From NCBI GenBank assembly GCA_023447635.1, contig JAEXNA010000219.1:27678-91677 (forward strand): 64,000 nucleotides of DNA, written 5' to 3'. The translations under genes were made by a program, and so were the position numbers. This DNA is from Vulcanimicrobiota bacterium. Lineage in GTDB: Bacteria; Vulcanimicrobiota; Xenobia; Xenobiales; JADMJV01. The stretch's first letter is position 1. Each line of letters opens with the position of its first letter. This document shows positions 15,467-64,000 of the stretch, piece after piece. Under the pieces are notes generated by a model. It was not told the DNA's origin and made no database searches. It worked only from the letters and a program-made list of their open reading frames with translations.

Positions 15467-15480
15467 GATGGGTCCTTTGT

Positions 15481-15519
15481 CTTGTCAGGAAAAACAAGCC
15501 CGGGCCCCGCGGGGCCCGG
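15481..15519 (-). terminator. intrinsic-terminator-like element between pfaA stop and pfaC start (GC hairpin plus U-tract)
   Basis: On the minus (sense) strand, a perfect 20-nt palindrome CCGGGCCCCGCGGGGCCCGG lies 7 nt after the pfaA TAA. It is followed by GCTTGTTTTTCC. A second small hairpin (CTTGT...ACAAG) sits beside it. Confidence 0.35.
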
Positions 15520-15526
15520 ACCGGGG

Positions 15527-18500
15527 TTAGCGAGCGAGGGCGCCGCTCAGACCGAAGGCGGCCTTCAGGGCGTCGTCGGCGGTCCACTCGAGCCGCTCGA
15601 AGCGGCCCAGCAGGTTGCCCTTGGCGTCAATCAGGTCGCAGTCGGCCACCAGGGCGCGGTCGCTGTGGCTGACCACCTTCAGGACGGCCTTCACGCCGCT
15701 CTTCGGGTAGCGGTTGACGAACTGGCGATAGTGGGCGAAGCCGTTCGGCAGCGAAGGCTTGCCCAGACCGTCCCAGCACCAGAGAATGCCAAGCTGCAGC
15801 ACTCCGTCGACCACTAGCGGTTCGGTGGCCCAGTCCGAGCGCAGCGGATCTCGTTCCCACTCGGCGGGTTTCCCGGCCGACTTCAGTTCGGCCACCAGGC
15901 CGCCTTCGGAGATGCCCGACACCCCGCTCACGGCGTGGAAATCCGGCCCGTGGAAGAGCAGTTCCGAGTAGATGGCGTCGGGCGAGTGGCTATAGCTGCG
16001 CGTGCTCAGAGGGGCGGGATCGAACGGCGCGGGGGCGCTGTCCTGAGCGTCGCCCAGGACCACGGTCGCCCGAGCGTGCAGCGCGTTGCGGCCGGTGTCC
16101 TTGAGCTCTAACGTCGCGTGGGTGCGACCGTCGACGACCTTCGTCGAGACCACGCTCACGGCAAGCGTCGGCTCGACCCCACCGCTTACGGTGACGCCGC
16201 GGAACACCCGCAGATCATCGAGGCCCACCAGGCGCATTCCGGCGCCCGAGAGCAGGGCGCCCTGAGTGAACCATTCCATCATGAAAGCCATCGGTAGCAC
16301 CGGCTGACCTTTGAGCTTGTGCGAATCGAGGAACGGCAGTGCGCTGACCGAGATCGCCTTCTGCAGGAGCTGCTCTCCCCCACCGCTCTGCCCCTCGCTC
16401 GAGGACGAGGTGCGCGGCTTGGGAGAGACCGGCTCGGGGAAGCCGTCGCCGAACAGCACTTCGGCCTGGCCGGCACCGTGGTGCGACAGTTCATCAACCA
16501 CGGCCTGAGCGCCGGCTTCGAGCGGGATCAAGCCCACGCCGATCCGCTCGAACTCTCGAGCCAGGGCGGGAGTGACCATTCCGCCCGCCCAGGGACCCCA
16601 GCCCATGGCGACCATGGTGCAGCGGGGGCGGCGGCGCGATTCTAGCTGGGCGAACTTATTGAGCACCTCGTTGGCCATGCAGTAGTCGACCTGACCGGGC
16701 CGTCCGAAGCGGGCGGTCACGGACGAGAAGAACAGCATGGTCTTCAAGTCGGGCAGCAGTTCGTTGAGGATGAGCAAGCTGTCGATCTTGGTCGAGAAGA
16801 CGCTCTGGAACATCTCGTCGGTCTTGTCTTCGATCTTGCGGTCGGCCAGCACGCCGGCGCCGTGGATCAGGGTGGTGATGGCCCCGAGCTGCTTCTGCAC
16901 TTCGGCCAGGCCGGCTTTCAGACCGTCCTTATCGCGCACATCGCAAGCCAGGTAAACAGCTTCCACTCCGGCCTCAGCGAAGGCGGCCAGAGTTCCCTGC
17001 ATCTCACGCTGAGCGGCGACCTTGTTGGCCACGCCCTGGAGGTCCTTCGGCGTCGCTTTGCCGCCGAACTGGCGCTGCATGATCTCGCGCTTGAGAGCGC
17101 CTTCATCCTCGATACCGGGATAGAGGTCGAAGTCGGGTCCTTCCAGCGGGGTGCGTCCCAGCAGGACGAACTTGCTGCCGTAGGCGCGAGCGGTGGCGAT
17201 AGCGCAGGCTGCGGTCACGCCGCGAGCGCCACCGGTCACCAGCACGACGTCCTTCTTGCCCAGGCGAGGAGCTCCCGCACTGGCCTGAGCCGTCGCGGTG
17301 ACCAGGGTCTCGCGACGACCGGGGCTTAGCGCGACTTCAACCGGGCCGTCTTTCATCAGCTCTTCGAGCACCGTTTCCACGGTGATCTCCGGATGACGAT
17401 CGATGGCGCGGGTGAACACCTCGGGCCACTCGTGAGCTACCGTCTTGGGCAAGCCGGCCAGACCGCCGATGAAGGGGTCGAACGCCTTGCCCTTGAGGCC
17501 GAAGCTGCCGTCCAGGGTGGTTACGGTGAACAGCGCGCCGCCGCTCTTACGCAGAGCCGGCGCCGCTTCGCGGGTGCGCTGGAAAGCGGTCATCAGGAAC
17601 TCGCGCGAACGCTGTCCGTCGCCGCCGTTGCCGACCAGCACCAGAGCGCCCAGGTTGGCCGGGAGGGCGCTGCCCGCCTCGACCTTCTCCACCTCCACGC
17701 CGCGCGACTGCAGGGCACCGACCAGTTCGTCGCCGAGGCCGGGGGTGTCCTCGAGCACGGCCAGAACCGCGCCCTCAGGCAGGGGCAGGCCGCTGGCCTG
17801 TCCCGGGCCCAGGTCGATCAGCTGCAGGCACTGACGGCTGATGGTACGAGCTGCGGGGGGAGCTGCCACAACGGTCGGAGCGACCACATGCGCGGCCGCA
17901 GCCCCACCAGCCGGAGTCATCGCGACCACGATTTCTCCCAGGGTGCGCAGGCTGCCGAGGCGGTCAGCGTCGACCTTGGGAAGGCCGGGCATGACTTCCT
18001 CGACGGAGGCCAGAATTTCCACCCGCTTGATGCTGTCGATGCCCAGGTCGGACTCCAGGTCCATCTCCAGGTTCAGCATCTCCTGCGGATAGCCGGTCTT
18101 CTCGGCCACCACGGCCAGCAGAGCGGCGGTCACGCCCGAGGCGTCCCCTCCACCGGAAGCGGCCGGAGCAGCAGGGGCGGCGGGGGCAGCCGCTGCAGGA
18201 GCGATCCCTTTGGGAGTCATCGCTTCCACGATCTCGCCCAGGGTGTGCAGACTGCCCAGACGGTCGCTGTCGACCTTGGGCAGACCGGGCAGCGCTTCTT
18301 CTACCGAAGCCAGGATCTCGACCCGCTTGATGCTGTCGATCCCCAGGTCGGACTCCAGGTCCATCTCCAGCGTCAGCATGTCCACGGGGTAGCCGGTCTT
18401 CTCGGCCACCACGACCATCAGCGCTTTGGCCACGCCGGGGTCGGTCGCGGGAACGCCCGTCGCAGGAGCGGCGTGGGCGGTCAACTGGGGCTGCAGGTCG

Positions 18501-21500
18501 CCGGCCGGGGTCATCGCTTCCACGATTTCGCCCAGGGTGTGCAAGCTGCCGAGACGGTCGCTGTCCACCTTGGGAAGGCCGGGCATGGCTTCTTCCACGG
18601 AGGCCAGGATTTCAACCCGCTTGATGCTGTCGATCCCCAGGTCGGACTCCAGGTCCATCTCCAGGGTCAGCATATCCACCGGGTAACCGGTTTTCTCGGC
18701 CACCACGTTCATCAGGGCGCGGGCCACTCCGGTGGCACCAAGGCCCATGGCGGGGGCAGAGTGGGAGGCGGCGGCGGGCGCCGAAGCGGTGGAAGCGGGA
18801 ACGCCTGCGGCCGGGGTCATCGCGGCCACGATCTCGCCCAGCGTGCGCAGGCTGCCGAGACGGTCGCTGTCCACCTTGGGAAGACCGGGAACGGCTTCTT
18901 CCACGGCGGCCAGAATCTCGACGCGCTTGATGCTGTCGATCCCCAGGTCGGCTTCGAGATCCATCTCCAGGTTGAGCATCTCGGCCGGGTAGCCGGTCTT
19001 GTCGGCGACCACCTTGAGCAGTGCGCCGGAGACGGCTCCGGAGGGAGCTGCGGAGGAGGCGGTGGGAGCGGAAGCGGTGGGAGCGGAAGCGGGAAGTCCG
19101 CCGGCCGGAGTCATCGCGGTGACGATCTCGCCCAGCGTGCGCAGGCTACCGAGGCGGTCGCTGTCCACCTTGGGCAGCCCGGGAACGGCTTCCTCGACGG
19201 CGGCCAGGATCTCGACGCGCTTGATGCTATCGATACCGAGGTCGGCCTCCAGGTCCATCTCCAGATTCAGCATCTCTACGGGGTAGCCGGTTTTGTCGGC
19301 CACCACCTTGAGCAGAGCGCTCGAAACCGCTCCAGAGGGAGCCGCAGAGGCAGCGGGAGCAGCAACGGGAGCGGCCGCTTTGGGTAGTCCGCCGGCCGGG
19401 GTCATCGCGGTCACGATCTCGCCCAGCGTGCGCAGAGCGCCCAGACGGTCGCTGTCCACCTTGGGAAGGCCGGGAACGGCTTCTTCGACGGCGGCCAGGA
19501 TCTCGACCCGCTTGATGCTGTCGATGCCCAGGTCGGCTTCGAGATCCATCTCTAGATTCAGCATCTCCTGGGGGTAGCCGGTCTTGTCGGCGACGACCTT
19601 GAGCAGCGCCTTCGAGACCGAATCGTCGGCCACGCCGCTGCCCAGCACCTGGTCGACCGGCGAGGCCACCGAGGCGATAGCGGGGGTGTGAACCTTCACC
19701 GGTGCCGGTGCCGGTGCCGGTGCCGGGCGGGCCGCCACAGGGGCGGGAGCCGCAGCGGCCGGGCGTGCCGGAGGGGCAACGGGAGCCGGCGCGATGGGGC
19801 GCGCGGGCGCCGCAACGACGGGAGCCGAAGACACGGGAGCCGGAGCTACGGGGCGAGCCGGGGCGGCAGGAGCAGCGGCGTGCTGCGCGGCCTGACCGGC
19901 CAGCAGCGCACCCAGAGCGCTCTGAGCCGCTTCCTGGCTTTTCAGGAACTGCTGATGGACCTGAGCCGTCTGGCGTGTCAGCTCTTGCAGCGCCTCGAGG
20001 TGAGGCAGCAGGCTGTCCAGAGCCGCCGGAGCGGCCACGGGAGCGACAGGGCGCTGAGGCGCCGGGGCCTGGGCAGGAGCCTTGGCTGCAGCTACAGAGG
20101 ACGGAGTCGGAGCAGCTGGAGCGGGAGCCGCCGGACGAGCCGGAGGGGTCGCTGGCAGGCTGACCGTAGCTTTGGCTACCGCAGGAGCGCTGTGAGCCGC
20201 CGGAAGAGCCGCCTTTACGACGGGAGCTGCAGCGGGAGCGGCGCTCTTGACGCCAACCGAATTGGGCTCGCGCACGGGCGGCTTCTTGCCGTTGCCCGAG
20301 CGGTAGTTGGCGCCCGAGATCGGCACCGTCATGCGGCGCTTGGCTTCGGCGGCGGGCTTCTCTTCCCACTGCGCCAGCTCGACCGGTAGACCGGCGGCCG
20401 CCAGTTCGGCAAGAGCCGTGGCAAGGTCCAGCAGTCCGCTTTTCTTGCCTACCGAGCGGTCCATCGGAACCACCTTGATGTCGCTCTTGTCTTTGAGGAT
20501 CGCCTTGACCAGACCGGTCAGCACCGTCTTCGGGCCCACCTCGATGAAGGTGCGGAATCCGTCGGCGTACATCTTCTCGATCAGGCCCACGAAGTTGACC
20601 TGGTGCACCAGCTGGTCGGCCAGCAGAGCCCGGGCGGTCTTGCCGCTGGCGGGATACAGCTCGGCGGTCTTGTTGGCGTAAACCGGGATTTCGGACTTGT
20701 TGAACTTGACCTTACCGGCCACCTTGTGGAACGGGTCGCGAGCGCCCGCTACGAAAGAGCTGTGGAAGGCGGCGCCGACTTTGAGCGGCACGCCGCGCAG
20801 GCCGGCCTTCTTCAGCTCGGGGGCCAGCGCTTCGAGGTCCTTGGCGGAGCCGCTCAGCACGCACTGGTCCGGAGAGTTACGGTTGGCCAGAACCACGGGA
20901 GTCTTGGTCTCGGCCAGAACCTGCTCGACCTTGTCCAGGGTGCCCTTGACGGCCATCATGGTGCCCAGGTCGTCGCCCTGCGAGGCCATCAGGCGGCCGC
21001 GCTCGCGGGACAGCTCGACCAGGCCCTCCCCGTCCAGGACGCCGGCGGCGTACAGGGCGGACAGCTCGCCGTAAGAGTGACCGGCGGTGCCTTCCGGCTT
21101 GAGGCCGAAGCGCTCGAGCAGGTGGAAGTAGCCGCGCTCCATCACGCCCAGAGCGGGCTGGGCGCGGTCGGTGGCGGTCAGGAAGTCGCCCTGGGCGGCT
21201 TCTTCGGCCTTGTCGAACACGGGCACCGGGTAGATGGCGTGAGCGATGTCGCGACCGGTGGCCTCCAGCGACTCGAGCAGTTCGGGGAAGGCGCAAGCCA
21301 GGTCCACGCCCATGTTCACATACTGCGAACCCTGACCGGGGAAGAGGAAGGCGACCTTGCCGTTGTCGGCGCTGCCCGACGAGGAAAACTCGGAGGCTTC
21401 GCCCTTCTTTAGCTTGTCCAGAGCGGCCGTCAGCGCGCTCGCGAAGTCGTCGGACAGCGCCGGCACCACCAGGCGGTGAGCATCGGCGCGGTTGAACGAC

Positions 21501-23047
21501 TGGCGGGATTCCCAGGCGATCAGCGAGGAGTGGCGGCTGTCGTCGAGGGCGCCCTGCACCTTCTTGATCAGCTCGTCCTTGGATCCGGCCGAGAAGGCGG
21601 CCAGTTCGACGCTGCCGTCCCAGGCCGTATCCTTACGCTGAGCGCCGTACTCTTCGAGCACCAGATGGAAGTTGCTGCCGCCGAAGCCGAAAGAAGACAG
21701 TCCGGCCCGGCGAGGGTGATCGGGGTGCGAGACCCAGGGGCGGCTGATGGTGTTCAGATAGAACGCGCTGTCTTCGATGCCCAGCTTGGGGTTCGGCTTG
21801 GTGATGTTGATGGTGGGCGGGAAGATCTTGTAGTGCAGCGCGAGAGCCGCCTTGATCAAGCCAGCCGAACCGGCGGCGGCTTTGGTGTGCCCGATCTGGG
21901 ACTTCACCGAACCCATGGCGCACCAGTTTTTGTCGCTGGAAACCTCGCCATAGACGGTCTTGAGCCCTTCGAACTCGACCACGTCACCGACCTTGGTTCC
22001 GGTACCGTGGGCTTCCACCAGCTCTACCGTGCGGGGCGAAACTTCGGCGTTCTCGTAAGCGCGGCGCAAGGCGCGAGCCTGTCCGTGCGACATCGGAGCG
22101 TAGACCGCGCCGCCTTTCCCGTCGCTGGCCGTTCCGACGCCGCGGATCACGGCGTAGATCTTGTCGCCGTCACGCTCGGCGTCGGCCAGGCGCTTGAGTA
22201 CGACCATGCCCAGGCCTTCACCCAGCATGGTGCCGTCGCTTTCGGCGTCGAACGGACGGATCTTCCCGGAGGCTGACAGGGCGGGCGTCTTCGAGAAGCA
22301 CATGAACATGAAGATGTCGTTGAAAGTGTCGGTACCGCCGGTGATCACCATGTCGGCCTGACCGGTCTGCAGTTCCAGGAACGCCAGGTGAGCCGCCGAC
22401 AGGGTCGAGGCGCAGGCCGCATCGACCACGCAGTTGGTCCCGTGCAGGTCCAGGCGGTTGGCGATACGTCCGGCGACCACGTTACCAAGCAGACCGGGGA
22501 ACGAGTTCTCCTGCCAGGGCACGTAGTCGGCCGAGATGCGCTGCATGACCTCTTCCACCAGCTCCGGGCCCAGGCCCGACTCTTGCAGCGCCTTCTTCCA
22601 GTAGGGGTGGCCCAGGCGAGCGCCCAGCGGAACCACCAGTTCGAGAGTGCCGGTGACACCCAGGATGACCGAGGTGGTGCTGCGGTCGAACTCGCGGTCC
22701 GGTCCATAACCGGCGTCTTCCAGGGCCGCCTTGGCAGCGACCAGACCCAGCAGCTGCGAGGTGTCGGTCGCCTCCAGCGCGGTGGGCGGCATGGAGAACT
22801 CTGTGGGGTCGAAAGGATAGGGATCCAGGAAGCCGCCGCGGCGACAGTAGGTCATATCCGACGCCTTCTGGTTGGCGTCGAAGTAGTCGTCCGGACTCCA
22901 ATGGGTGTCCGGGATCTCCGAAATGGTGTCAGTGCCGAGTCGAAGGATCTTCCAGAAAGACTTCAGGTTGTTGGCCTTCGGATAGAGGGCCGACATGCCC
23001 ACGATGGCGATGTCGGTTCTCTGGGACTGAGCGGGAGCGTTCTTCAT
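15527..23047 (-). CDS. pfaA: PUFA-synthase-type PKS subunit PfaA-like: KS-MAT-6xACP-KR-DH
   Basis: KS (DAACASTLSAAHLAF, EAHGTGTKVGD, GHTKAAAG). MAT (FLFPGQGSQYVNMG, GHSYGELSALYAAG). Six tandem ACPs, each with the LGIDSIKRVEIL phosphopantetheine-site motif. KR (VVLVTGGARGVTAACAIA). C-terminal PKS-type DH. Confidence 0.9.
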   Translation of the reverse strand: MKNAPAQSQRTDIAIVGMSALYPKANNLKSFWKILRLGTDTISEIPDTHWSPDDYFDANQKASDMTYCRRGGFLDPYPFDPTEFSMPPTALEATDTSQLLGLVAAKAALEDAGYGPDREFDRSTTSVILGVTGTLELVVPLGARLGHPYWKKALQESGLGPELVEEVMQRISADYVPWQENSFPGLLGNVVAGRIANRLDLHGTNCVVDAACASTLSAAHLAFLELQTGQADMVITGGTDTFNDIFMFMCFSKTPALSASGKIRPFDAESDGTMLGEGLGMVVLKRLADAERDGDKIYAVIRGVGTASDGKGGAVYAPMSHGQARALRRAYENAEVSPRTVELVEAHGTGTKVGDVVEFEGLKTVYGEVSSDKNWCAMGSVKSQIGHTKAAAGSAGLIKAALALHYKIFPPTINITKPNPKLGIEDSAFYLNTISRPWVSHPDHPRRAGLSSFGFGGSNFHLVLEEYGAQRKDTAWDGSVELAAFSAGSKDELIKKVQGALDDSRHSSLIAWESRQSFNRADAHRLVVPALSDDFASALTAALDKLKKGEASEFSSSGSADNGKVAFLFPGQGSQYVNMGVDLACAFPELLESLEATGRDIAHAIYPVPVFDKAEEAAQGDFLTATDRAQPALGVMERGYFHLLERFGLKPEGTAGHSYGELSALYAAGVLDGEGLVELSRERGRLMASQGDDLGTMMAVKGTLDKVEQVLAETKTPVVLANRNSPDQCVLSGSAKDLEALAPELKKAGLRGVPLKVGAAFHSSFVAGARDPFHKVAGKVKFNKSEIPVYANKTAELYPASGKTARALLADQLVHQVNFVGLIEKMYADGFRTFIEVGPKTVLTGLVKAILKDKSDIKVVPMDRSVGKKSGLLDLATALAELAAAGLPVELAQWEEKPAAEAKRRMTVPISGANYRSGNGKKPPVREPNSVGVKSAAPAAAPVVKAALPAAHSAPAVAKATVSLPATPPARPAAPAPAAPTPSSVAAAKAPAQAPAPQRPVAPVAAPAALDSLLPHLEALQELTRQTAQVHQQFLKSQEAAQSALGALLAGQAAQHAAAPAAPARPVAPAPVSSAPVVAAPARPIAPAPVAPPARPAAAAPAPVAARPAPAPAPAPVKVHTPAIASVASPVDQVLGSGVADDSVSKALLKVVADKTGYPQEMLNLEMDLEADLGIDSIKRVEILAAVEEAVPGLPKVDSDRLGALRTLGEIVTAMTPAGGLPKAAAPVAAPAASAAPSGAVSSALLKVVADKTGYPVEMLNLEMDLEADLGIDSIKRVEILAAVEEAVPGLPKVDSDRLGSLRTLGEIVTAMTPAGGLPASAPTASAPTASSAAPSGAVSGALLKVVADKTGYPAEMLNLEMDLEADLGIDSIKRVEILAAVEEAVPGLPKVDSDRLGSLRTLGEIVAAMTPAAGVPASTASAPAAASHSAPAMGLGATGVARALMNVVAEKTGYPVDMLTLEMDLESDLGIDSIKRVEILASVEEAMPGLPKVDSDRLGSLHTLGEIVEAMTPAGDLQPQLTAHAAPATGVPATDPGVAKALMVVVAEKTGYPVDMLTLEMDLESDLGIDSIKRVEILASVEEALPGLPKVDSDRLGSLHTLGEIVEAMTPKGIAPAAAAPAAPAAPAASGGGDASGVTAALLAVVAEKTGYPQEMLNLEMDLESDLGIDSIKRVEILASVEEVMPGLPKVDADRLGSLRTLGEIVVAMTPAGGAAAAHVVAPTVVAAPPAARTISRQCLQLIDLGPGQASGLPLPEGAVLAVLEDTPGLGDELVGALQSRGVEVEKVEAGSALPANLGALVLVGNGGDGQRSREFLMTAFQRTREAAPALRKSGGALFTVTTLDGSFGLKGKAFDPFIGGLAGLPKTVAHEWPEVFTRAIDRHPEITVETVLEELMKDGPVEVALSPGRRETLVTATAQASAGAPRLGKKDVVLVTGGARGVTAACAIATARAYGSKFVLLGRTPLEGPDFDLYPGIEDEGALKREIMQRQFGGKATPKDLQGVANKVAAQREMQGTLAAFAEAGVEAVYLACDVRDKDGLKAGLAEVQKQLGAITTLIHGAGVLADRKIEDKTDEMFQSVFSTKIDSLLILNELLPDLKTMLFFSSVTARFGRPGQVDYCMANEVLNKFAQLESRRRPRCTMVAMGWGPWAGGMVTPALAREFERIGVGLIPLEAGAQAVVDELSHHGAGQAEVLFGDGFPEPVSPKPRTSSSSEGQSGGGEQLLQKAISVSALPFLDSHKLKGQPVLPMAFMMEWFTQGALLSGAGMRLVGLDDLRVFRGVTVSGGVEPTLAVSVVSTKVVDGRTHATLELKDTGRNALHARATVVLGDAQDSAPAPFDPAPLSTRSYSHSPDAIYSELLFHGPDFHAVSGVSGISEGGLVAELKSAGKPAEWERDPLRSDWATEPLVVDGVLQLGILWCWDGLGKPSLPNGFAHYRQFVNRYPKSGVKAVLKVVSHSDRALVADCDLIDAKGNLLGRFERLEWTADDALKAAFGLSGALAR
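17890..19630 (-). repeat. six tandem ~290-bp ACP-encoding repeats within pfaA
   Basis: The peptide xxALLKVVADKTGYPxEMLNLEMDLEADLGIDSIKRVEILAAVEEAVPGLPKVDSDRLGSLRTLGEIV recurs six times. The repeats also show up as a ladder of near-identical spurious plus-strand ORFs (17841.., 18210.., 18426.., 18732.., 18999.., 19293..). Confidence 0.85.
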
Positions 23048-56381: not shown

Positions 56382-56454
56382 CCGTGAAATCATAGCATGT
56401 TCAACCACCCTGTGGGCCTTCTGTCGCCGCCGGGAATCCCTGGAGGAGATAGCT

Positions 56455-58671
56455 ATGTCCAGCACTATCAACAGTTCATCCTCGACCGTCCCGTCCACTT
56501 CGATCCGCCCGCAGGCTCGCCCCGAGACCGCCGGCGCCGCTGAAGTCGCCGCCGCGCCGCCTTCCGACGCCGTCGCCATCAGCGCGGACGCCGGCGGAGC
56601 CGCAGCGCCCAACCCGTATGAAGGGTTCTCTGAGCATTCGGTCTCGATGAAACCGGACTCCTGGACGAAGGACCGCACTCCGGGCGAAGGTCAGGTCGCG
56701 CGCAACGATCATCTCGAAGGGATGCTGCGCAATCAGGGCTACTCCGTCGAAGACATCTACAAGAAGGACGAAAACGGACAAAATCTGCTGCAGCGGGTGG
56801 CTGACGCCAACGGACTGAAAGATCCGAACCTGATCACGCCCGAGCAGTCGCTGACCCTGCCGACCAAGAATGCGCCTCCCGCCGATGCGGAGACCAAGGC
56901 CGACGAGGTCAAAGGGGAAACCGTCACCACCGAGGCTTACAACGAAGGGGAAGGCGCCAAAGCCAACGCCTCTACCGAGGTCGGTCGCGCTGAAGACTCC
57001 ACCCTGACCACCAGCGCCGAAACCCAAGGTGACGGCTCCGAGGCTAACGCCTCAACGAAGGTCGGTGAGTCAGAGAACTCTACCATCACCACCGAAGCGA
57101 AAGCCGAAGGGAAAGAAGCCACCGCCAACGCCTCGACCGAGGTTGGCAAGGCCAAGGATTCCGAGATTACCACCGTGGCCGCCGCCGAAGGCGAAGGCTC
57201 GCAAGCCAACGCCGGGACCGCCGTCGGCGAGGCGGAGAAATCCAAGATCACCACCGCGGCCGTGGCCACCGGCGATGGCGCGGAAGCCAACGCGGGCACC
57301 ACCGTCGGTGAAGCGAAAGAGTCAGAGGTCACCACCTCGGCCGCCGCCATCGGCGACGGAGCGCAAGCCAACGCCGGCACCGCCGTTGGCACGGCCGAAG
57401 ACTCTCCCGTCAAGACTGAGGCCGCCAGCGAAGGCGAAGGGTCGACGGCAGAGGCCGCCACCAGCGTAGCGGAAGCCAAAGATTCGACCGTAGAGACGAC
57501 TGCGGTGGCTGAAGGAAAAGATTCCCAGGCCGTAGCGATCGGTGAAGTCGCCAAAGCCGAAGATTCCACCGTGGCTTCTACGGCCGTCAGTGAAGGCGAA
57601 GGCTCCAACGCCGGCGCCGGCGCCTTCGTGACCGGAGCTGAAGGCAGCACTCTCGAGGCCTCGGCCTCATCCGACGGGGGCTCGGCCGAAGCGTACGTCG
57701 ACAACAGCGGCTACGATCAGAACGGTCGCGCCGAGGTCAGCGCTGCGGGCGCCGACGGCGCCCACGCCGAAGCCACCGGGGTCGAGCACGCCTCGGTCGC
57801 CGCGAATGGCGGCGCCGGGAACGCCGACGTCGTGGTCGACGCGAAGACCAGCGAGACGGCCGTGACGGGTGAAGGCGACGGAACGGTCGTGAACCAGGGG
57901 CGCGATAGCAAAGGCTCGTTCGACATCGACGTGGCCGGCGACGCCAGGATTCTCGACGAGGGCAACGACCCCACCATGTCGGGTACAAGCACCGGCAACT
58001 CCATCGAAGCTTCTGCTCGGGGTGAAGACCTGGAGGTTCGCACTTCGGACTCGAAGTCGGTCGACATCGCTTTCGAAGGTCGCGAAGGCGACAACTTCGT
58101 ACGGGGCAATCTGCCGCAGGGCGGCGAGTCGTCGCGGGTCGACCTGGGTCTGGGCGACGGGAACGACCGGGTCGAGATGCAGCGCGGCGCCAATGACGAC
58201 ACCATGATCATCAGCAAGACCGATGGCGAACTGGACCTGAACCTGCACACCGGGGTGGGAATGGACGACAACGGCTCGCAGACCACTCTGGTTGACGGCG
58301 GCAACGCTAAGATCAGCGGAAGTATCGGCGGCAGCGAGGGCGACGACACGGTAATGATCCAGGGCGGCGATTTTGGCGACCTGAAGGTCAGCGGCGGCAC
58401 CGGTGGCAACGACCAGCTGGTAATCGACCTGCCTGAAGGGGCGGCGATCCCTGCGATAGTCACCAAAGAAGCTGACTCGGGGTGGTTTGGCTGGGGCGCC
58501 ACCGAGGCCGAGGGGATACTGCCCGAAGGCTACAAGGAAGGCGACCAGGCGATCAGCGCCAACGGCTTCGAGAACATCGTCATCCGACAGGGCGGCAAGG
58601 TGGTAGGCCAGTACGGAGAGGGCGAACTGCCGCCGGAGTTCCAGCAGGCCGTGGAGCAAGCCCGCTCGTAG
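56455..58671 (+). CDS. LysM-domain protein with ~12 tandem 20-aa repeats and an RTX-like Gly/Asp-rich C-terminus
   Basis: GGAGGAG 8 nt before ATG at 56455 (track ORF extends to 56215). LysM-like YSVEDIYKKDENGQNLLQRVADANGLKDPNLITPEQSLTLP. Repeats of the form EGEGSxANAxTxVGEAxDSxxTTxA. C-terminal GGSEGDDTV / GGTGGNDQLVI nonapeptide-like units. Confidence 0.65.
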   Translation: MSSTINSSSSTVPSTSIRPQARPETAGAAEVAAAPPSDAVAISADAGGAAAPNPYEGFSEHSVSMKPDSWTKDRTPGEGQVARNDHLEGMLRNQGYSVEDIYKKDENGQNLLQRVADANGLKDPNLITPEQSLTLPTKNAPPADAETKADEVKGETVTTEAYNEGEGAKANASTEVGRAEDSTLTTSAETQGDGSEANASTKVGESENSTITTEAKAEGKEATANASTEVGKAKDSEITTVAAAEGEGSQANAGTAVGEAEKSKITTAAVATGDGAEANAGTTVGEAKESEVTTSAAAIGDGAQANAGTAVGTAEDSPVKTEAASEGEGSTAEAATSVAEAKDSTVETTAVAEGKDSQAVAIGEVAKAEDSTVASTAVSEGEGSNAGAGAFVTGAEGSTLEASASSDGGSAEAYVDNSGYDQNGRAEVSAAGADGAHAEATGVEHASVAANGGAGNADVVVDAKTSETAVTGEGDGTVVNQGRDSKGSFDIDVAGDARILDEGNDPTMSGTSTGNSIEASARGEDLEVRTSDSKSVDIAFEGREGDNFVRGNLPQGGESSRVDLGLGDGNDRVEMQRGANDDTMIISKTDGELDLNLHTGVGMDDNGSQTTLVDGGNAKISGSIGGSEGDDTVMIQGGDFGDLKVSGGTGGNDQLVIDLPEGAAIPAIVTKEADSGWFGWGATEAEGILPEGYKEGDQAISANGFENIVIRQGGKVVGQYGEGELPPEFQQAVEQARS
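56926..57660 (+). repeat. ~60-bp tandem coding repeats (x~12) inside the LysM protein gene
   Basis: Periodic gaaggcgaaggc...gccaacgcc...accgccgtcggcgaggcg...tccaccgtg pattern. The protein shows regular EGEGS...ANAGT...VGEA...DS...TT... units. Confidence 0.75.
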
Positions 58672-58679
58672 AGCGGTAA

Positions 58680-59852
58680 GTGCTCCCAAGACAACGACAA
58701 TTTCAAGACCCCCAGAGCGGCAAGCTCTGGGGGACTTTTTTTGATGGCTCGACCGTTCAGGTCGTCTCTGGCGCTCCCGGTAAGGAGAGGACGGTCGAGA
58801 AGCCCCAATCGGACCCGTTCAGCGCCTTTCGCTTTCTAGACAAAGAAGAAGGCGCTCGACTGCGCAAGGGGTTCATGCTGCGCAATCCCGAGGCGGGCCC
58901 AGGCGAGCCTCGCTTGCTGCGCCATCTGGGTCGCGGCTACACCGGCGCCCTGGTGGTAGCCGAACGTCAGGGCAAGCTGATCAGCAATCTGTTCGACGAG
59001 GCGACCGGCAGCGACGGACTCTGGGTCGTGAACAGTCAGGGAGAGGGCGAAGCGGTGCTCTCCCCCGGCGGCCTGGTCTGGGAGATGGGCCGAGGCAAGG
59101 CCAGCGTGCTGTTGCTGATCGACCATCAGGTAAAGGCGTGGAATCTTTCCACAAGCGATCTCAGCGAACTGACTCCTCGTCCCCGACACCCGGTCAGCTT
59201 CCTCTCCTGCTCTGGCTCGCTGGCCGCCTGGTACGACGAGCCCGAAGTGGTGGTGCGCGACCTGGCTGCGGGGCGCGACTTGCTGCGGGTCAAGGTCGAG
59301 CCCGAACTGGTCTCCGGCCATTCGCTGCAGCTTTCCGGCGCGCTGTCGCCCAGCGGCGACCGTCTGGCTTTTTCCGCCGGCCAGGGCGTGGTGGAACTCT
59401 ACGACGTGCGAAGCGGACACTGGCTGCGCACCATCTGCGCCGACTTTGCCATGACCGAGCGGATGGCGTTTAGCTCGGACGACCAGCGACTGCTGGCTAA
59501 GGAGAAGTACGGTCGCTGGCGCCTGCTGGACTTCGACCTGGAGGCGGGCGTCTTGAGAGACACCTTCGCCGGTCTTGGCGACCTGGGCAACGGCGATTTT
59601 GCCTTGGACGCTCACGGCGAACGGGTGGCGGTGGTGTCCGGTTCACGCCTACGGATGGTCGGGCTGGACGGCTCGCCCTTGCTCGAGTTTCGGCTGGACC
59701 AGACGGTAAAGCGGGCCGCTCTGGCCTGGACCGGCGACGGCCATCTGGCGGTGCGCACCGACCTGGGGTTGCTGGGCGTTTACGCCGTGCCGATGCTTGC
59801 CTCGCCCGCCGACCGGGGCTCGTGGACAGGGCCTGACACGCCGATCGCATAA
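58680..59852 (+). CDS. hypothetical protein (beta-propeller-like repeats likely)
   Basis: 390-aa ORF starting 9 nt after the LysM protein stop. Recurrent ...LSPxGDRLAFS..., ...GERVAVVSGS... strands suggest a WD/TolB-like propeller. Low confidence. Confidence 0.45.
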   Translation: MLPRQRQFQDPQSGKLWGTFFDGSTVQVVSGAPGKERTVEKPQSDPFSAFRFLDKEEGARLRKGFMLRNPEAGPGEPRLLRHLGRGYTGALVVAERQGKLISNLFDEATGSDGLWVVNSQGEGEAVLSPGGLVWEMGRGKASVLLLIDHQVKAWNLSTSDLSELTPRPRHPVSFLSCSGSLAAWYDEPEVVVRDLAAGRDLLRVKVEPELVSGHSLQLSGALSPSGDRLAFSAGQGVVELYDVRSGHWLRTICADFAMTERMAFSSDDQRLLAKEKYGRWRLLDFDLEAGVLRDTFAGLGDLGNGDFALDAHGERVAVVSGSRLRMVGLDGSPLLEFRLDQTVKRAALAWTGDGHLAVRTDLGLLGVYAVPMLASPADRGSWTGPDTPIA

Positions 59853-59909: not shown

Positions 59910-60683
59910 ATGAGCCATGCCAAAAAGCGACTCTCTTCCCTGGACTGTCGGCTGCCTCCGGGGCAACCGGTCGTGCTGCGTCACGCCGCAAACACCGCTT
60001 ACCTCGAGGGCGAGGACCGCGAGCTGTCGGTCGGAGGTCATTCGAAATGGTGGTGGAGGCTGGGAGCTTTGTGGCGAGGCTTTTTCCTGCTCTTCGCCGC
60101 TGTTTGGCTGACCTTTCTGGTCTACAACGGAACCTGGAACTCTCCGCTGGCAGCGGAGACGCCCGCCACCTCTCTCGAAGTCGTGGACGGGGGCGGGAAC
60201 CGGATGCTCGCCTATTCGTATCAGGTCGAAGGCGAGACTTACCAGCGCACGGAGTCGCCCGGATCGACCTGGAAGAGTTCCTGGGAATCCGGCGATCCCG
60301 ACGAGACGATCCGCTACCTGACCTTCTGGCCCTCTCGGGCGCACCTGGACTTTCGCGTCGAACGCTGGTCCTGGGGCGGCGCCATCTCGATCACTCTGTT
60401 TGTCTTCGCCCTGGCCTACGCCGGCCATCTGACGATGAAGACCCAGCGACATCTGGAGCGGATCGCCGAAGGCTGCACCCATATCGTCCCCGGCAGCGTG
60501 GTCCAGGTCATCCCATCGCAGAACTTCCGCTACGTTATCTACAGCGCGACCTCTCCTACCACCGGACAGGAGATCCGGGAGAAGGTGATGGTGGGAGAGG
60601 GAGAGGCGGTCAAAACCTCCCTTGTCGTGGGAGCCCCGGTCGCGGTGCTGTACCGAGACGACGAGTCGCACACCTTACTTTGA
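59910..60683 (+). CDS. hypothetical membrane protein (two TM helices flanking a beta-rich ectodomain)
   Basis: 257-aa ORF. TM helices WWRLGALWRGFFLLFAAVWLTFLVY and WGGAISITLFVFALAYAGHL. Confidence 0.45.
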   Translation: MSHAKKRLSSLDCRLPPGQPVVLRHAANTAYLEGEDRELSVGGHSKWWWRLGALWRGFFLLFAAVWLTFLVYNGTWNSPLAAETPATSLEVVDGGGNRMLAYSYQVEGETYQRTESPGSTWKSSWESGDPDETIRYLTFWPSRAHLDFRVERWSWGGAISITLFVFALAYAGHLTMKTQRHLERIAEGCTHIVPGSVVQVIPSQNFRYVIYSATSPTTGQEIREKVMVGEGEAVKTSLVVGAPVAVLYRDDESHTLL

Positions 60684-60746: not shown

Positions 60747-61823
60747 ATGATCACGACGTTGGTGGAGCGATGCTCCGAGGGTTTGGTCGAACGACGCTCG
60801 GTGGTGGAGGCGATCGTGCTGGCCGCCGTGGCGGGAGAGCACGTGCTGCTGATCGGACCGCCCGGCACGGCCAAAAGCGAGGCGGCTCGACGGGTCGCGA
60901 GAGGCCTGGGCGGACGCTACTTCGAGTATCTGCTGGGCAAGTTCTCCGAGCCTTCGGAGCTTTTTGGCCCTACCGATCTTCGCAAACTCAAGGACGGTCT
61001 GCTAGAGACGGCCACCGAGGGAATGCTGCCAGAGGCCGAGGTCGCTTTCCTCGACGAAGTGTTCGCCGGCTCGACGGCTATCCTGAACAGCCTGCTGACC
61101 TTGCTCAACGAGCGCACCTACCGGCGCGGGAACACGCGCCTGGTCTGCCCTCTGCGGGTCTGCATTGGGGCCAGCAACAGCCTGCCCGAAGACGAGAGTC
61201 TGGCCGCCTTCGCGGACCGCTTCCTGGTGCGCTGCTTTGTCGAGCCGGTGGCCGACAGCCTGCTGGAGGATCTGCTGGCGGGCGGTCGGGCCAGGGTCGC
61301 CGTAGACGGGAGCGACACCGGTTCACTAAGCGACCTTGATGCCTACGCTCGACGAGCTCGGGAGATCGATCTGAGCGAAGTTCAGCCGCTGCTGGCTCAG
61401 GCGCTTCGTCGCCTTCGCAAAGAGGGGATAGGGCTTTCCGATCGTCGCTCGGTCAGGGCCCAGAACCTGATCGCGGCGGCCGCAGCGATCAGCGGGCGAG
61501 ATAAGGCGACCTCGGCCGACCTGTGGCCACTGCTGCTGGCGGTGCCCACGGCGGCCGAGCAGCGCCTGGCCCGACGTTGTTTGGAGAGCCTGCTGGCCGA
61601 AAGCGACAGCGCCGCCCTGCACCACCTGGCCGAAGAGGTTTCGAGGGCGCCCGCCGTGCGAGCGCGCGGCCTGGCCGAGGCTGCTCAGAAGGCGCTGACT
61701 TCTCCGGTCGATCCGCTACGCGTCGAAGGCGTGCTGCGCGACATCGACGCCAATTTTGCCACCGAAGCGCTGCCCGAAGAGTTGGTTCGGCTGCGAGGGC
61801 AGCTGAAATCCGCCCTCTCATGA
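60747..61823 (+). CDS. RavA/MoxR-like AAA+ ATPase
   Basis: Walker A HVLLIGPPGTAKS, Walker B AFLDEV, sensor ILNSLLTLLNER. Colinear similarity to E. coli RavA N-terminus (FLLGPPGIAKS...FEYLMTRFSTPEEVFGP...IVFLDEI...ILNTLLTAINER). Confidence 0.8.
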   Translation: MITTLVERCSEGLVERRSVVEAIVLAAVAGEHVLLIGPPGTAKSEAARRVARGLGGRYFEYLLGKFSEPSELFGPTDLRKLKDGLLETATEGMLPEAEVAFLDEVFAGSTAILNSLLTLLNERTYRRGNTRLVCPLRVCIGASNSLPEDESLAAFADRFLVRCFVEPVADSLLEDLLAGGRARVAVDGSDTGSLSDLDAYARRAREIDLSEVQPLLAQALRRLRKEGIGLSDRRSVRAQNLIAAAAAISGRDKATSADLWPLLLAVPTAAEQRLARRCLESLLAESDSAALHHLAEEVSRAPAVRARGLAEAAQKALTSPVDPLRVEGVLRDIDANFATEALPEELVRLRGQLKSALS

Positions 61824-62167
61824 AGCTAGAATGGCTACCGCGCGAGCAGCCTCTGCCGGTCGAGGGATGCTGGGTCGAGGGGGCCGCAGCGGAGAGCCTG
61901 GGGAAACGGCTGCGGGACGGTCCCGCCGCGGGACTTCGGGTGGCCCTGGGCGAGGGGCGCCTGGTGGTGCTGGGGGCCGAGCCGCCCTGGATCGAAGGCG
62001 CGATCTTTCTGGGCCGGGACCAGGGGCTGTACCTTCCTACTCTGTGGCAGCCCAACGTCCCGATCGCCTGGATTCTCGCTCGGCTGCGTCAACTGGGCGA
62101 GCCGCCCTGGGCGCTGGTCCCGCCGGGGCGGGCGATGGGGCTAAGCCAGGCGACGGTGCTGACGTGA
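61820..62167 (+). CDS. small hypothetical protein, translationally coupled to the RavA-like gene (ATGA overlap)
   Basis: ATG at 61820 overlaps the TGA of the ATPase gene. 115 aa (MKLEWLPREQPLPVEGCWVEG...). It is the C-terminal part of track ORF 61523..62167. Confidence 0.4.
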   Translation: MKLEWLPREQPLPVEGCWVEGAAAESLGKRLRDGPAAGLRVALGEGRLVVLGAEPPWIEGAIFLGRDQGLYLPTLWQPNVPIAWILARLRQLGEPPWALVPPGRAMGLSQATVLT

Positions 62168-63495
62168 GCTCTTCCGTCGAGTCGCCGGCCTGGTGGGAGA
62201 GCTGGGACTTTCTGGCGCCGGACACTCGCCAGGACTTTGGGCGGCTGGTCGACCTGTTGGAACGGGGGCTAAGCAGCAGTGGGGCCGCCACGCTTCCGGA
62301 CGAGCCCGCGGGTTGGTCGGGATTAGCTCGACGCGGCCCCTGGGACCGCCTGGTCCCGTCCGAGTGGGCGCTGCTCGAAGTCGCCCCGGAAGAGTTCGCG
62401 CGTCGGGCCGACGAGGGCGAACTGGGCTTCTGGCAGATGGCGCGGGACGGCCGGGCGGCCAGCCGCTCGGTCTGGCTCTGGCTAGACGCAGGACCGGACC
62501 AGTTGGGCGCCTGCCGGGTAGTGCAGATCGCCCTGATGCTCTGGCTGCAGCGGGTCTGCCGGCGGACCGGCGGGAGCTTTCACTGGGGCGTGGTTCAAGC
62601 GCCGGAGGCCGGGTACGAGGGGTTCGGAGCCGAAGAGCTGACGAAGTTTCTCTCCCTGCGCTCGACCGACCCGCCGCGTCGCCCTCCGGAGCGGATGGAT
62701 GGGATGGTCACCTGGTGCGTCGGCTCAGAGGGCTGGATGAGCCAGGTCCCCTCGAGCTTTCAGCGGGTGACGCTAAGTCAGAACGGGCCGGAGAGCGTCG
62801 AGTTGCAGGCGATGGAGCGGCGGTTAGAGCTGCCGCTGCCAACAGGAGAGAGGGCGGTGCGACTACTGCGCGACCCTATGGTCTGGAAGGTGGTGAAACG
62901 AACCAACGCTCCGGTCCAACGCGCCAACCTGCCGCCGCTCGGAGAGGCGCTCGAAGACTATACCTTCTCTCTCTGTGGCAAGAAGCTGCTGCTGGCCTAT
63001 CGCGACCGGATCGTGGTCGCTCCGATCCCGTCTTCGGTCCGTGAAGAGCCGGGAAAAACTCGCAGCTATCCGCTGCGTTTCTCGGGTCCCGTGCTGGGCA
63101 TGAGCATGGAGGGCAGGGCCATCCGCGTGGTCCAGCAGGTCGGGGGCGAGTGGGTGTTCTACCGGCTGAATCCCGAACTCAGCGACCTGGACGAGATGGT
63201 GCGGGTCGGCGCCGACGATTCCAATGCTTTCGACATCGGAACTTGCTGGACGGTCGACGGCGGCTGGCGCCTCTGGATTGAAGACAAATTCTGGACGGTG
63301 AAGTCGGGTCAACTCCGACCCTGTCTAGGGGTACACGGCGGCTCCCCGCTGGGAGCTGGAAGCTACCTGATGCTGGCTTCGGGAATGTTGCTCGACGCCA
63401 GGGAGAAGCCGGTCTATGGCCTGGACCCGAAACCCGAGGGCGATGTCGTCATGGCTCGGAGCAAGCTGCATCAGCTTCGTCAGCAAGAGCGCTGA
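62164..63495 (+). CDS. hypothetical protein (~444 aa), translationally coupled (GTGA overlap)
   Basis: In-frame GTG at 62164 overlaps the stop of the small ORF. The upstream part of the track ORF (61831-62163) is Gly/Arg-rich junk overlapping the ATPase gene in another frame. No clear MIDAS (DxSxS) motif. Confidence 0.5.
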   Translation: MSSSVESPAWWESWDFLAPDTRQDFGRLVDLLERGLSSSGAATLPDEPAGWSGLARRGPWDRLVPSEWALLEVAPEEFARRADEGELGFWQMARDGRAASRSVWLWLDAGPDQLGACRVVQIALMLWLQRVCRRTGGSFHWGVVQAPEAGYEGFGAEELTKFLSLRSTDPPRRPPERMDGMVTWCVGSEGWMSQVPSSFQRVTLSQNGPESVELQAMERRLELPLPTGERAVRLLRDPMVWKVVKRTNAPVQRANLPPLGEALEDYTFSLCGKKLLLAYRDRIVVAPIPSSVREEPGKTRSYPLRFSGPVLGMSMEGRAIRVVQQVGGEWVFYRLNPELSDLDEMVRVGADDSNAFDIGTCWTVDGGWRLWIEDKFWTVKSGQLRPCLGVHGGSPLGAGSYLMLASGMLLDAREKPVYGLDPKPEGDVVMARSKLHQLRQQER

Positions 63496-63510
63496 GTCGG
63501 CGAGCTAGGC

Positions 63511-63828
63511 ATGGTGATGGCACATCCTATGCCGGGTCAGGGGTGGAAGGTTCTCTGGCAAGACAAGGAAGAGATCTTGCCTGTCAACGGCAGGGTGCTG
63601 GGGCTGGTTTGCGAGGACCACTACGGCCCCGCTCTGGTCGTGCAGAACGGCCAGGAGATCCGACTTCAGGGGAGCGGTTGGAGTGAGCAGCTCGACCTGC
63701 ATCCCGGCATGCGCTTTCGTTTTCATCCCAACGGCTTGATGGCCTACCTCCAGGAGGACGGCGACCTGGTCGTCTACGGCTTCGCCGATCGCTCTGTCCG
63801 CTGGAGCCGCTGGAGTCACGAAGGATGA
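63511..63828 (+). CDS. small hypothetical protein (105 aa)
   Basis: ATG 15 nt after the previous stop. Its stop overlaps the next ATG (ATGA at 63825). Confidence 0.4.
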   Translation: MVMAHPMPGQGWKVLWQDKEEILPVNGRVLGLVCEDHYGPALVVQNGQEIRLQGSGWSEQLDLHPGMRFRFHPNGLMAYLQEDGDLVVYGFADRSVRWSRWSHEG

Positions 63829-64000
63829 GGTGGCAGGGGCAGGTCGAGGCCTGGGCGCTCTGGTTCCCACCCGAGGCGGCCACCTCCCATCGGCTGGCGG
63901 GGGCGTGGCAGCCAGGCTCGCGACTGCTTCAGGCAGGCGGCGGGATGCTGCTCCTCCTCCCCTCCCCCCGACCGGTCCGGGCGGAGCTGTCCCTAGCGCT
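63825..64000 (+). CDS. partial CDS (5' end), hypothetical, continues beyond window
   Basis: Open frame MRWQGQVEAWALWFPPEAATSHRLAGAWQPGSRLL... from the ATGA overlap to the window end. Confidence 0.3.
   Translation, partial: MRWQGQVEAWALWFPPEAATSHRLAGAWQPGSRLLQAGGGMLLLLPSPRPVRAELSLA

Follow-up and report, generated by a model that had tools for sequence, protein, structure and literature searches.

An interrupted adaptor gene in a probable copy of the MoxR-vWA-beta-propeller ternary system from a Vulcanimicrobiota bacterium

Genes of the cassette

The 3' end of a 64,000-nucleotide stretch of Vulcanimicrobiota bacterium DNA (GenBank assembly GCA_023447635.1, contig JAEXNA010000219.1, positions 27,678 to 91,677 of the forward strand; hereafter the window) carries a closely packed run of forward-strand open reading frames (ORFs), which we assign with high confidence to the MoxR-vWA-beta-propeller ternary system, subsystem 4 of Kaur et al. 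(2020), as one copy of it. The run opens with an AAA+ ATPase gene of the bpMoxR type (60747..61823), encoding 358 amino acids (aa). The ATG of the following ORF, which encodes a 115-aa accessory protein of the bpX5 family (61820..62167), overlaps the ATPase stop (ATGA), and the bpX5 stop in turn overlaps the GTG of an ORF holding the N-terminal part of a vWA-propeller adaptor (62164..63495, 443 aa; GTGA). An in-frame TGA (63493..63495), identified by translation and by alignment with 30 homologues, interrupts the adaptor gene at this point. Beyond a 15-nt spacer of five in-frame codons, VGELG (63496..63510), lies a 105-aa ORF with the C-terminal part of the adaptor (63511..63828), and its stop overlaps the ATG (ATGA) of the gene for the bpX6 component, of which the window contains the first 58 codons (63825..64000) before the gene runs off its end; on the source contig this protein has 796 aa.

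A sequence-only reading of the window had proposed these five ORFs and their overlap junctions, and translation places each of them where that reading put it. For the third ORF the start, the position and the GTGA overlap stand, whereas the length is 443 aa plus the stop, not 444 aa. The same reading counted four genes downstream of the ATPase, where there are really three, one of them interrupted by the in-frame TGA, and recognised nothing among their products, two of which match the Pfam families bpX5 and bpX6. Its claim of a conserved, tightly coupled cassette around a MoxR ATPase is borne out, as over 60 other genomes keep the gene order, well beyond what a chance arrangement of ORFs would give. 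The module is not undescribed, as had been supposed, since Kaur et al. (2020; PMC7159879) had already described it, and it has Pfam models of its own (bpMoxR and bpX0-bpX6). What is unusual here is the split of the adaptor gene, at a blade boundary of the propeller; the rest of the cassette is ordinary for the family.

The ATPase belongs to Pfam PF20030, bpMoxR (2e-80, 269 bits against a cutoff of 27), and gives AAA_5 and AAA_lid_8 matches besides. Its P-loop or Walker A motif, located by eye, reads GPPGTAKS (residues 37-44, nt 60855-60878); the Walker B pair D103-E104 (LDE), sensor-1 N144 and the arginine finger R158 were numbered in the same way. The likeness to RavA noted from the sequence is real and the Walker A and B motifs are legible: the NCBIfam RavA model NF010054 matches at 3e-49, aligning ATPase residues 2-262 with model positions 11-280 of 498. 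However, this match covers the AAA+ core only and, at 168 bits, stays far below the equivalog cutoff of 681, so that the ATPase is not a RavA equivalog. In tblastn comparisons the protein is 55-79% identical across homologous loci, from residue 1 on. The gene caller used for the public contigs starts the ATPase 23 codons later (60816 instead of 60747), yielding 335 aa; since homologues are conserved from the first residue of the 358-aa form, the ATG at 60747 is the more likely start on sequence grounds.

The 115-aa protein matches PF19921, bpX5 (4e-10, 39.9 bits against a cutoff of 27), and tblastn finds bpX5 in the same position in most related loci. Residues R8, G52, P56, W57, G65 and P73 are invariant in the alignment (A3), and a profile search of the PDB found no significant relative of the protein. 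The idea, formed by eye, that bpX5 is akin to the N-terminal domain of the bpX6 protein was rejected (hhalign probability 0.1).

The last ORF matches PF19922, bpX6, at 5e-7 for the 58-aa fragment and at 2e-9 for the full 796-aa protein, which we read from a 125-kb European Nucleotide Archive (ENA) metagenome contig (L001, 11662-14052) identical to the window over 11.8 kb and one of three such contigs that encode the 443-aa protein. The bpMoxR, bpX5 and bpX6 matches all lie above their gathering cutoffs. The 796-aa protein begins with the bpX6 domain, continues through a conserved helical region and ends in a beta-rich C-terminus, inside which lies its most variable part (residues 641-760); a PDB profile search with it returned nothing significant. 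Three Actinomycetota bpX6 proteins (L061, L062, L058) have a transmembrane-like hydrophobic segment at about residues 133-210, after the bpX6 domain, and no transmembrane segment is seen in those of the window clade or of Myxococcota. The system may thus be membrane-anchored in some lineages only. On L001 a reverse-strand gene of an efflux family follows the bpX6 gene, and the cassette therefore ends there.

The adaptor and its in-frame stop

The vWA domain expected of a MoxR partner is well hidden. Neither the 443-aa protein nor 30 members of its family give a Pfam vWA match, and a sequence-profile search of the PDB with the 443-aa protein found no vWA either. The AlphaFold2 model of this protein (mean pLDDT 79, above 90 over residues 100-240) shows N-terminal helices at about residues 9-97, an alpha/beta domain at about residues 100-236 and then some sixteen beta strands. 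The alpha/beta domain (nt 62461-62871) is vWA-like in the model, and the strands form propeller blades 1-4 at about residues 262-431. Structures listed beside the model of the vWA-like domain are the A2 and A1 domains of von Willebrand factor (vWF) and the I domains of LFA-1 and CD11b, as well as BatB, RPN10, Ku80, CMG2, complement factor B, collagen VI, INTS13 and INTS14. In a Foldseek search of the 443-aa model against the PDB, the best 50 matches were propellers only, with no independent confirmation of the vWA. A full-length homologue, P0003, models as a vWA domain followed by a seven-bladed propeller.

The metal-ion-dependent adhesion site (MIDAS) of the domain is degenerate. Directly after the first beta strand of the model, at 62485..62499, the canonical DxSxS is replaced by DxGPD (D108-A-G110-P-D112, that is, DAGPD); all 31 sequences have D108 and G110, 30 have P111 and 29 have D112. 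After strand 4 there is no conserved Asp across the family, the consensus being W-C-x-G-S-P. One MIDAS aspartate is therefore kept and invariant, while the other is absent, and vWA domains of this subsystem have been noted to lack one or both of them (PMC7159879). At the level of the predicted fold, a cryptic and divergent vWA-like domain lies within the 443-aa protein ahead of the propeller blades, and it is this combination of vWA and propeller that defines subsystem 4 of Kaur et al. (2020). The earlier view that the ATPase has no VWA partner with a DxSxS motif is accordingly right about the motif, the site being non-canonical, and wrong about the partner, which has a divergent vWA-like domain in the model. 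Invisible to sequence profiles and seen only at the fold level, the vWA of this ternary system makes it easy to mistake for a MoxR ATPase lacking a vWA partner, and the same trap awaits other genome scans.

The propeller of the adaptor is divided between two ORFs. The 443-aa and 105-aa ORFs share a frame (63511 - 62164 = 1347, or 449 codons). A homologue search with the 443-aa protein returned 30 relatives at 28-53% identity, nearly all of 500-565 aa, and in single homologues of about 530 aa the C-terminal 100 or so residues align with the 105-aa ORF. Sharing a frame with the 443-aa ORF and aligning with these C-termini, the 105-aa ORF is the C-terminus of the adaptor, and the two are in-frame pieces of one adaptor gene. 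In the alignment with the 30 homologues the TGA sits inside a 7-codon insertion specific to the source lineage, and the spacer codons VGELG are still similar to the homologous VKGLG or VKRLG. On the P0003 model the stop projects between residues 423 and 424, within the loop that joins strand 413-418 to strand 429-434; the latter strand opens with F429, the residue with which Met1 of the 105-aa ORF is aligned. The model thus puts the split at the boundary of blades 4 and 5, leaving the vWA domain and blades 1-4 in the 443-aa ORF and blades 5-7 in the 105-aa ORF.

The TGA is not an assembly error. It is present in three ENA assemblies, at least 99.89% identical, and the one that differs by 12 single-nucleotide polymorphisms in 10.6 kb has the same stop, a divergence too small to speak on the long-term retention of the split. 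Three homologous loci aligned at the nucleotide level with this region are too diverged to show the origin of the insertion. Selenocysteine insertion or another recoding RNA at the TGA was considered and rejected: an Rfam search of the window returned neither a selenocysteine insertion sequence (SECIS) nor any other recoding RNA, and the TGA, being located in the insertion, replaces no conserved Cys. Just downstream of the TGA, a predicted RNA hairpin (63508-63533, forward strand) pairs the AUG of the 105-aa ORF (z = -2.38; 3 of 200 shuffles as stable); it may be relevant to reinitiation or may be a coincidence.

In the source organism the adaptor would be made as two chains (the vWA domain with blades 1-4, and blades 5-7), or as a full-length protein by read-through of the TGA, or would have been recently inactivated. 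It is quite possible, if short of an even chance, that the cassette is decaying, with the TGA a recent nonsense mutation that cuts the adaptor after blade 4, the 105-aa ORF an untranslated remnant and the system inactive. The interruption is unique: no interrupted adaptor was found in 63 related loci from other organisms, each with a single ORF that ends at the bpX6 start. Likewise, an exhaustive profile search of the family, clustered at 50%, gave 1,760 representatives, of which 1,041 reach E <=1e-30, and among the best 150 of the 1,760 the window protein alone is shorter than 500 aa. The close identity of the three stop-bearing assemblies means that the stop could be very young. In a relaxed-constraint test the 105-aa piece also ranked lowest among 20 sequences for the back/front identity ratio, at 0.694 where intact homologues average 0.754, although this is less than one standard deviation (0.089) from the mean. 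Decay fits less well with the other three genes, which are intact, and with the stop/start overlaps, all of which are kept, including the ATGA into bpX6. It also leaves to chance that the lineage-specific insertion with the stop occupies a loop between blades and that an ATG coincides exactly with the residue opening the next strand, an arrangement tidier than would be expected of a random nonsense hit.

These last features can be turned around. A functional split, in which two polypeptides reassemble into a seven-bladed propeller (4 + 3) or a full-length adaptor arises by low-level UGA read-through or by termination-reinitiation, is a possible explanation to be held tentatively. It would account for the break at the blade 4/5 boundary with Met1 at the first residue of a strand, for a spacer that still resembles its homologous counterpart, and for a 105-aa ORF that is intact and retains its ATGA coupling to bpX6; the hairpin pairing the AUG would fit a restart by terminating ribosomes. 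However, neither the 63 loci nor the best 150 representatives provide a second independent case, no clear Shine-Dalgarno sequence is seen by eye upstream of the 105-aa ATG, and the statistical support for the hairpin is modest. In DNA of 66% GC, moreover, an intact ORF of 105 codons is not rare, and the Rfam search offers no recoding element to support read-through. If the split is functional, either route could tune the amount of adaptor. That the TGA is a natural gene fission or recoding point at blade 4/5, giving a 4+3 two-chain propeller or a full-length protein rationed by read-through or reinitiation, seems to us rather unlikely; if true, it would represent a new regulatory variant of an uncharacterised MoxR-vWA threat-sensing system. 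In any case, the split adaptor is a small natural experiment on whether a propeller can assemble from two chains and whether its last three blades are needed.

Distribution and relation to known systems

A scan of one genome per species identified 61 loci. The closest, at 46-47% identity, are from metagenome-assembled genomes (MAGs) of Vulcanimicrobiota (Eremiobacterota type), a phylum not named in the description of the subsystem by Kaur et al. (2020). Others are found in Myxococcota (Myxococcus, Corallococcus, Archangium, Hyalangium, Pyxidicoccus) and in Actinomycetota (Lentzea, Kribbella, Actinocrispum). According to tblastn with the window proteins, the order MoxR-bpX5-adaptor-bpX6 (the last of about 800 aa) is kept nearly everywhere, in some 60 loci of three phyla. 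The same four genes have been reported in a region of genomic plasticity of Pseudomonas syringae (PMC9677677). The flanks, on the other hand, differ in every locus examined, with unrelated genes beside the cassette in L004 and L005, for example. In the close clade, identity is 54-66% over the vWA part of the adaptor and 18-43% over the propeller blades. The family has about 1,760 representatives at 50% clustering, in several phyla.

Kaur, Burroughs, Iyer and Aravind (eLife 2020; PMC7159879) described the ternary system computationally and predicted a role for it in conflict or threat sensing. As they describe it, the MoxR ATPase has an unusual P-loop, GxxxTAKS, the divergent vWA always occurs with a C-terminal beta-propeller, and the third component has TPR and propeller regions after a globular N-terminus; further genes linked to these encode products of unknown fold. 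The GPPGTAKS of the window ATPase fits this P-loop variant, and the window shares with the system a bpMoxR carrying it, the divergent vWA-propeller protein, bpX5 and bpX6, the lack of an effector, and relatives in Myxococcota and Actinomycetota. The window lineage differs in that its adaptor gene is split by the in-frame TGA, and in that the most variable parts are the propeller blades, not the N-terminus as in the system of Kaur et al. (2020).

The resemblance to RavA-ViaA extends to the presence of a MoxR-class AAA+ ATPase with a vWA-fold partner downstream in the operon. However, at 358 aa the window ATPase is shorter than RavA (about 498 aa) and does not align with the C-terminal region of the RavA model that includes LARA, and the adaptor differs from ViaA in having DxGPD in place of DxSxS and in carrying a propeller, besides which there are two extra conserved genes, bpX5 and bpX6. 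Nor is this the ordinary RavA-ViaA pair with a canonical VWA domain that the sequence-only reading had set against its own proposal, given a non-canonical vWA and an ATPase that is no RavA equivalog. In the NorQ-NorD and CbbQ-CbbO systems the client enzyme is encoded nearby and the MIDAS is intact, whereas the window has no client gene and a degenerate MIDAS.

A further comparison is with the Esr pathway of oral Actinobacteria, which combines MoxR and vWA with a sequence-diverse propeller as the proposed sensor, and which is the first experimental support for a MoxR-vWA system of the type described by Aravind and colleagues in threat sensing (bioRxiv 10.64898/2026.09.08.750141). This recent work suggests that such MoxR-vWA-propeller modules sense external threats. 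Esr, however, has a Ser/Thr kinase, a phosphatase, an FHA protein, a transglutaminase and the secreted filamentous EsrA, and is without bpX5 or bpX6. None of these components is present here, and none of the corresponding Pfam families (Ser/Thr kinase, phosphatase, FHA, transglutaminase) was found within 10 kb on either side of the cassette on the source contig.

Some related loci have additional genes. Several in Myxococcota show about 3 kb of extra genes between MoxR and bpX5. In Archangium gephyra (L020, 2170-5400) about 3.4 kb separate bpMoxR from bpX5 and include a gene of the TsiV family (PF11876). TsiV is the immunity protein for the type VI VRR-NUC toxin. In a related MAG (L005, 3318-8360; also in L007), a WXG100-like gene and a gene for a 1,109-aa FtsK/SpoIIIE ATPase lie directly upstream of bpMoxR. 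WXG100 and FtsK/SpoIIIE proteins are hallmarks of type VII secretion. The arrangement in L005 recalls the linkage of Esr with Esx (bioRxiv 10.64898/2026.09.08.750141).

Proposed role and genomic neighbourhood

In characterised MoxR-vWA pairs a ring of the ATPase works through a vWA adaptor to remodel a bound protein. By analogy with RavA-ViaA, NorQ-NorD, CbbQ-CbbO and midasin, bpMoxR is probably hexameric. The vWA-propeller adaptor would retain the bpX6 protein, perhaps along with bpX5, by means of its propeller or the altered MIDAS face, and ATP hydrolysis would remodel or release the bpX6 (perhaps bpX5) partner, so that the ensemble could act as a threshold switch. We would place this switch in a pathway of conflict or threat sensing, where the rapidly evolving surfaces of the propeller would serve for recognition. 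Comparative analysis suggests that such a role, which is the prediction of Kaur et al. (2020), fits better than that of a dedicated housekeeping chaperone, because the propeller faces are fast-evolving, the distribution is patchy and island-like, and there is no conserved client gene.

In an alternative scenario, which we consider improbable, the cassette is an ordinary MoxR chaperone for the assembly or maturation of a complex, like RavA-ViaA, NorQD or CoxDE, without a part in conflict. The characterised MoxR-vWA pairs are all chaperones of this kind (PMC7159879), no enzymatic effector domain was found in the cassette proteins, there is no PADLOC match, and the neighbours are of housekeeping type. 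Yet the changing flanks include no conserved candidate for the client, the system is patchy across phyla, with the P. syringae copy in a plasticity region (PMC9677677), and the ATPase lacks the C-terminal RavA part and remains below the RavA equivalog cutoff. The partner proteins, moreover, diverge much faster than the ATPase, which would be unusual for a housekeeping chaperone-client pair.

Several points nevertheless weigh against a subsystem 4 cassette with a role in conflict. The system is called enigmatic by its own discoverers, for want of a conventional effector (PMC7159879), and our literature search found no experimental study of bpX5, bpX6 or subsystem 4. Kaur et al. (2020) give the propeller about four blades, whereas the full-length homologue models with seven, and they report a membrane segment in the third component, whereas the window clade has none. 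The TPR and propeller regions of the 796-aa protein emerge only below threshold (TPR_GEMI5, E=0.025; LST8, E=0.11). PADLOC (PADLOC-DB 2.0) detected no defence family, its matches being P-loop noise with E values of at least 0.015. Genes on either side encode a beta-lactamase-like protein, a hybrid histidine kinase, Fpg, BrkB, LysR regulators and a peptidoglycan-binding protein; with such ordinary genes (Fpg, BrkB, LysR, efflux) and no PADLOC system around it, the cassette does not lie in a defence island, for which the sequence-only reading had suggested a check. Finally, the interruption of the adaptor gene may leave the cassette non-functional in the source organism.

The 5' limit of the cassette was judged by conservation. 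The sequence-only reading had allowed that the preceding membrane protein might belong to it, but this gene and the two before it occur only on the source organism's own contigs: tblastn of the 257-, 390- and 739-aa proteins against 66 loci matched nothing else, and all three were rejected as cassette members. Less likely than the gene fission considered above is the further idea that these lineage-specific genes act together as a local module for sensing or output, coupled to the cassette. A scan for promoters and terminators gave nothing above chance by which to bound the operon. The 257-aa membrane protein (59910-60683, forward strand) has a sub-cutoff DUF3592 match (E=4.5e-4) and is not found beside the cassette in more than 60 other loci. 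The 390-aa protein (58680-59852, forward strand), whose gene begins 8 nt after that of the repeat protein described next, shows sub-threshold WD40/propeller matches only and no similarity to the propeller proteins of the cassette, the bpX6 protein included. A terminator-like hairpin (58709-58743, forward strand; 10 bp with 8 GC pairs, followed by a T-run) and of strong type lies within the first 20 codons of its ORF, in a region whose terminator count is no higher than chance. The 739-aa protein (56452-58671, forward strand) is acidic and rich in Thr, Ala and Glu, with 81-nt (27-aa) tandem repeats at 57124-57401; it matches no family, the sole hit being a sub-threshold half-LysM match (E=0.023). 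WGR-like and RTX-like affinities considered for these upstream proteins found no support in Pfam even at E <=10.

Elsewhere in the window, two reverse-strand ORFs (8264-23047) of 2,399 and 2,505 aa encode a polyketide/fatty-acid synthase resembling polyunsaturated fatty acid (PUFA) synthases. One has the domain order KS-AT-6xACP-KR-DH (ketosynthase, acyltransferase, six acyl carrier proteins, ketoreductase, dehydratase), and the other combines KS domains with three FabA-like dehydratases.

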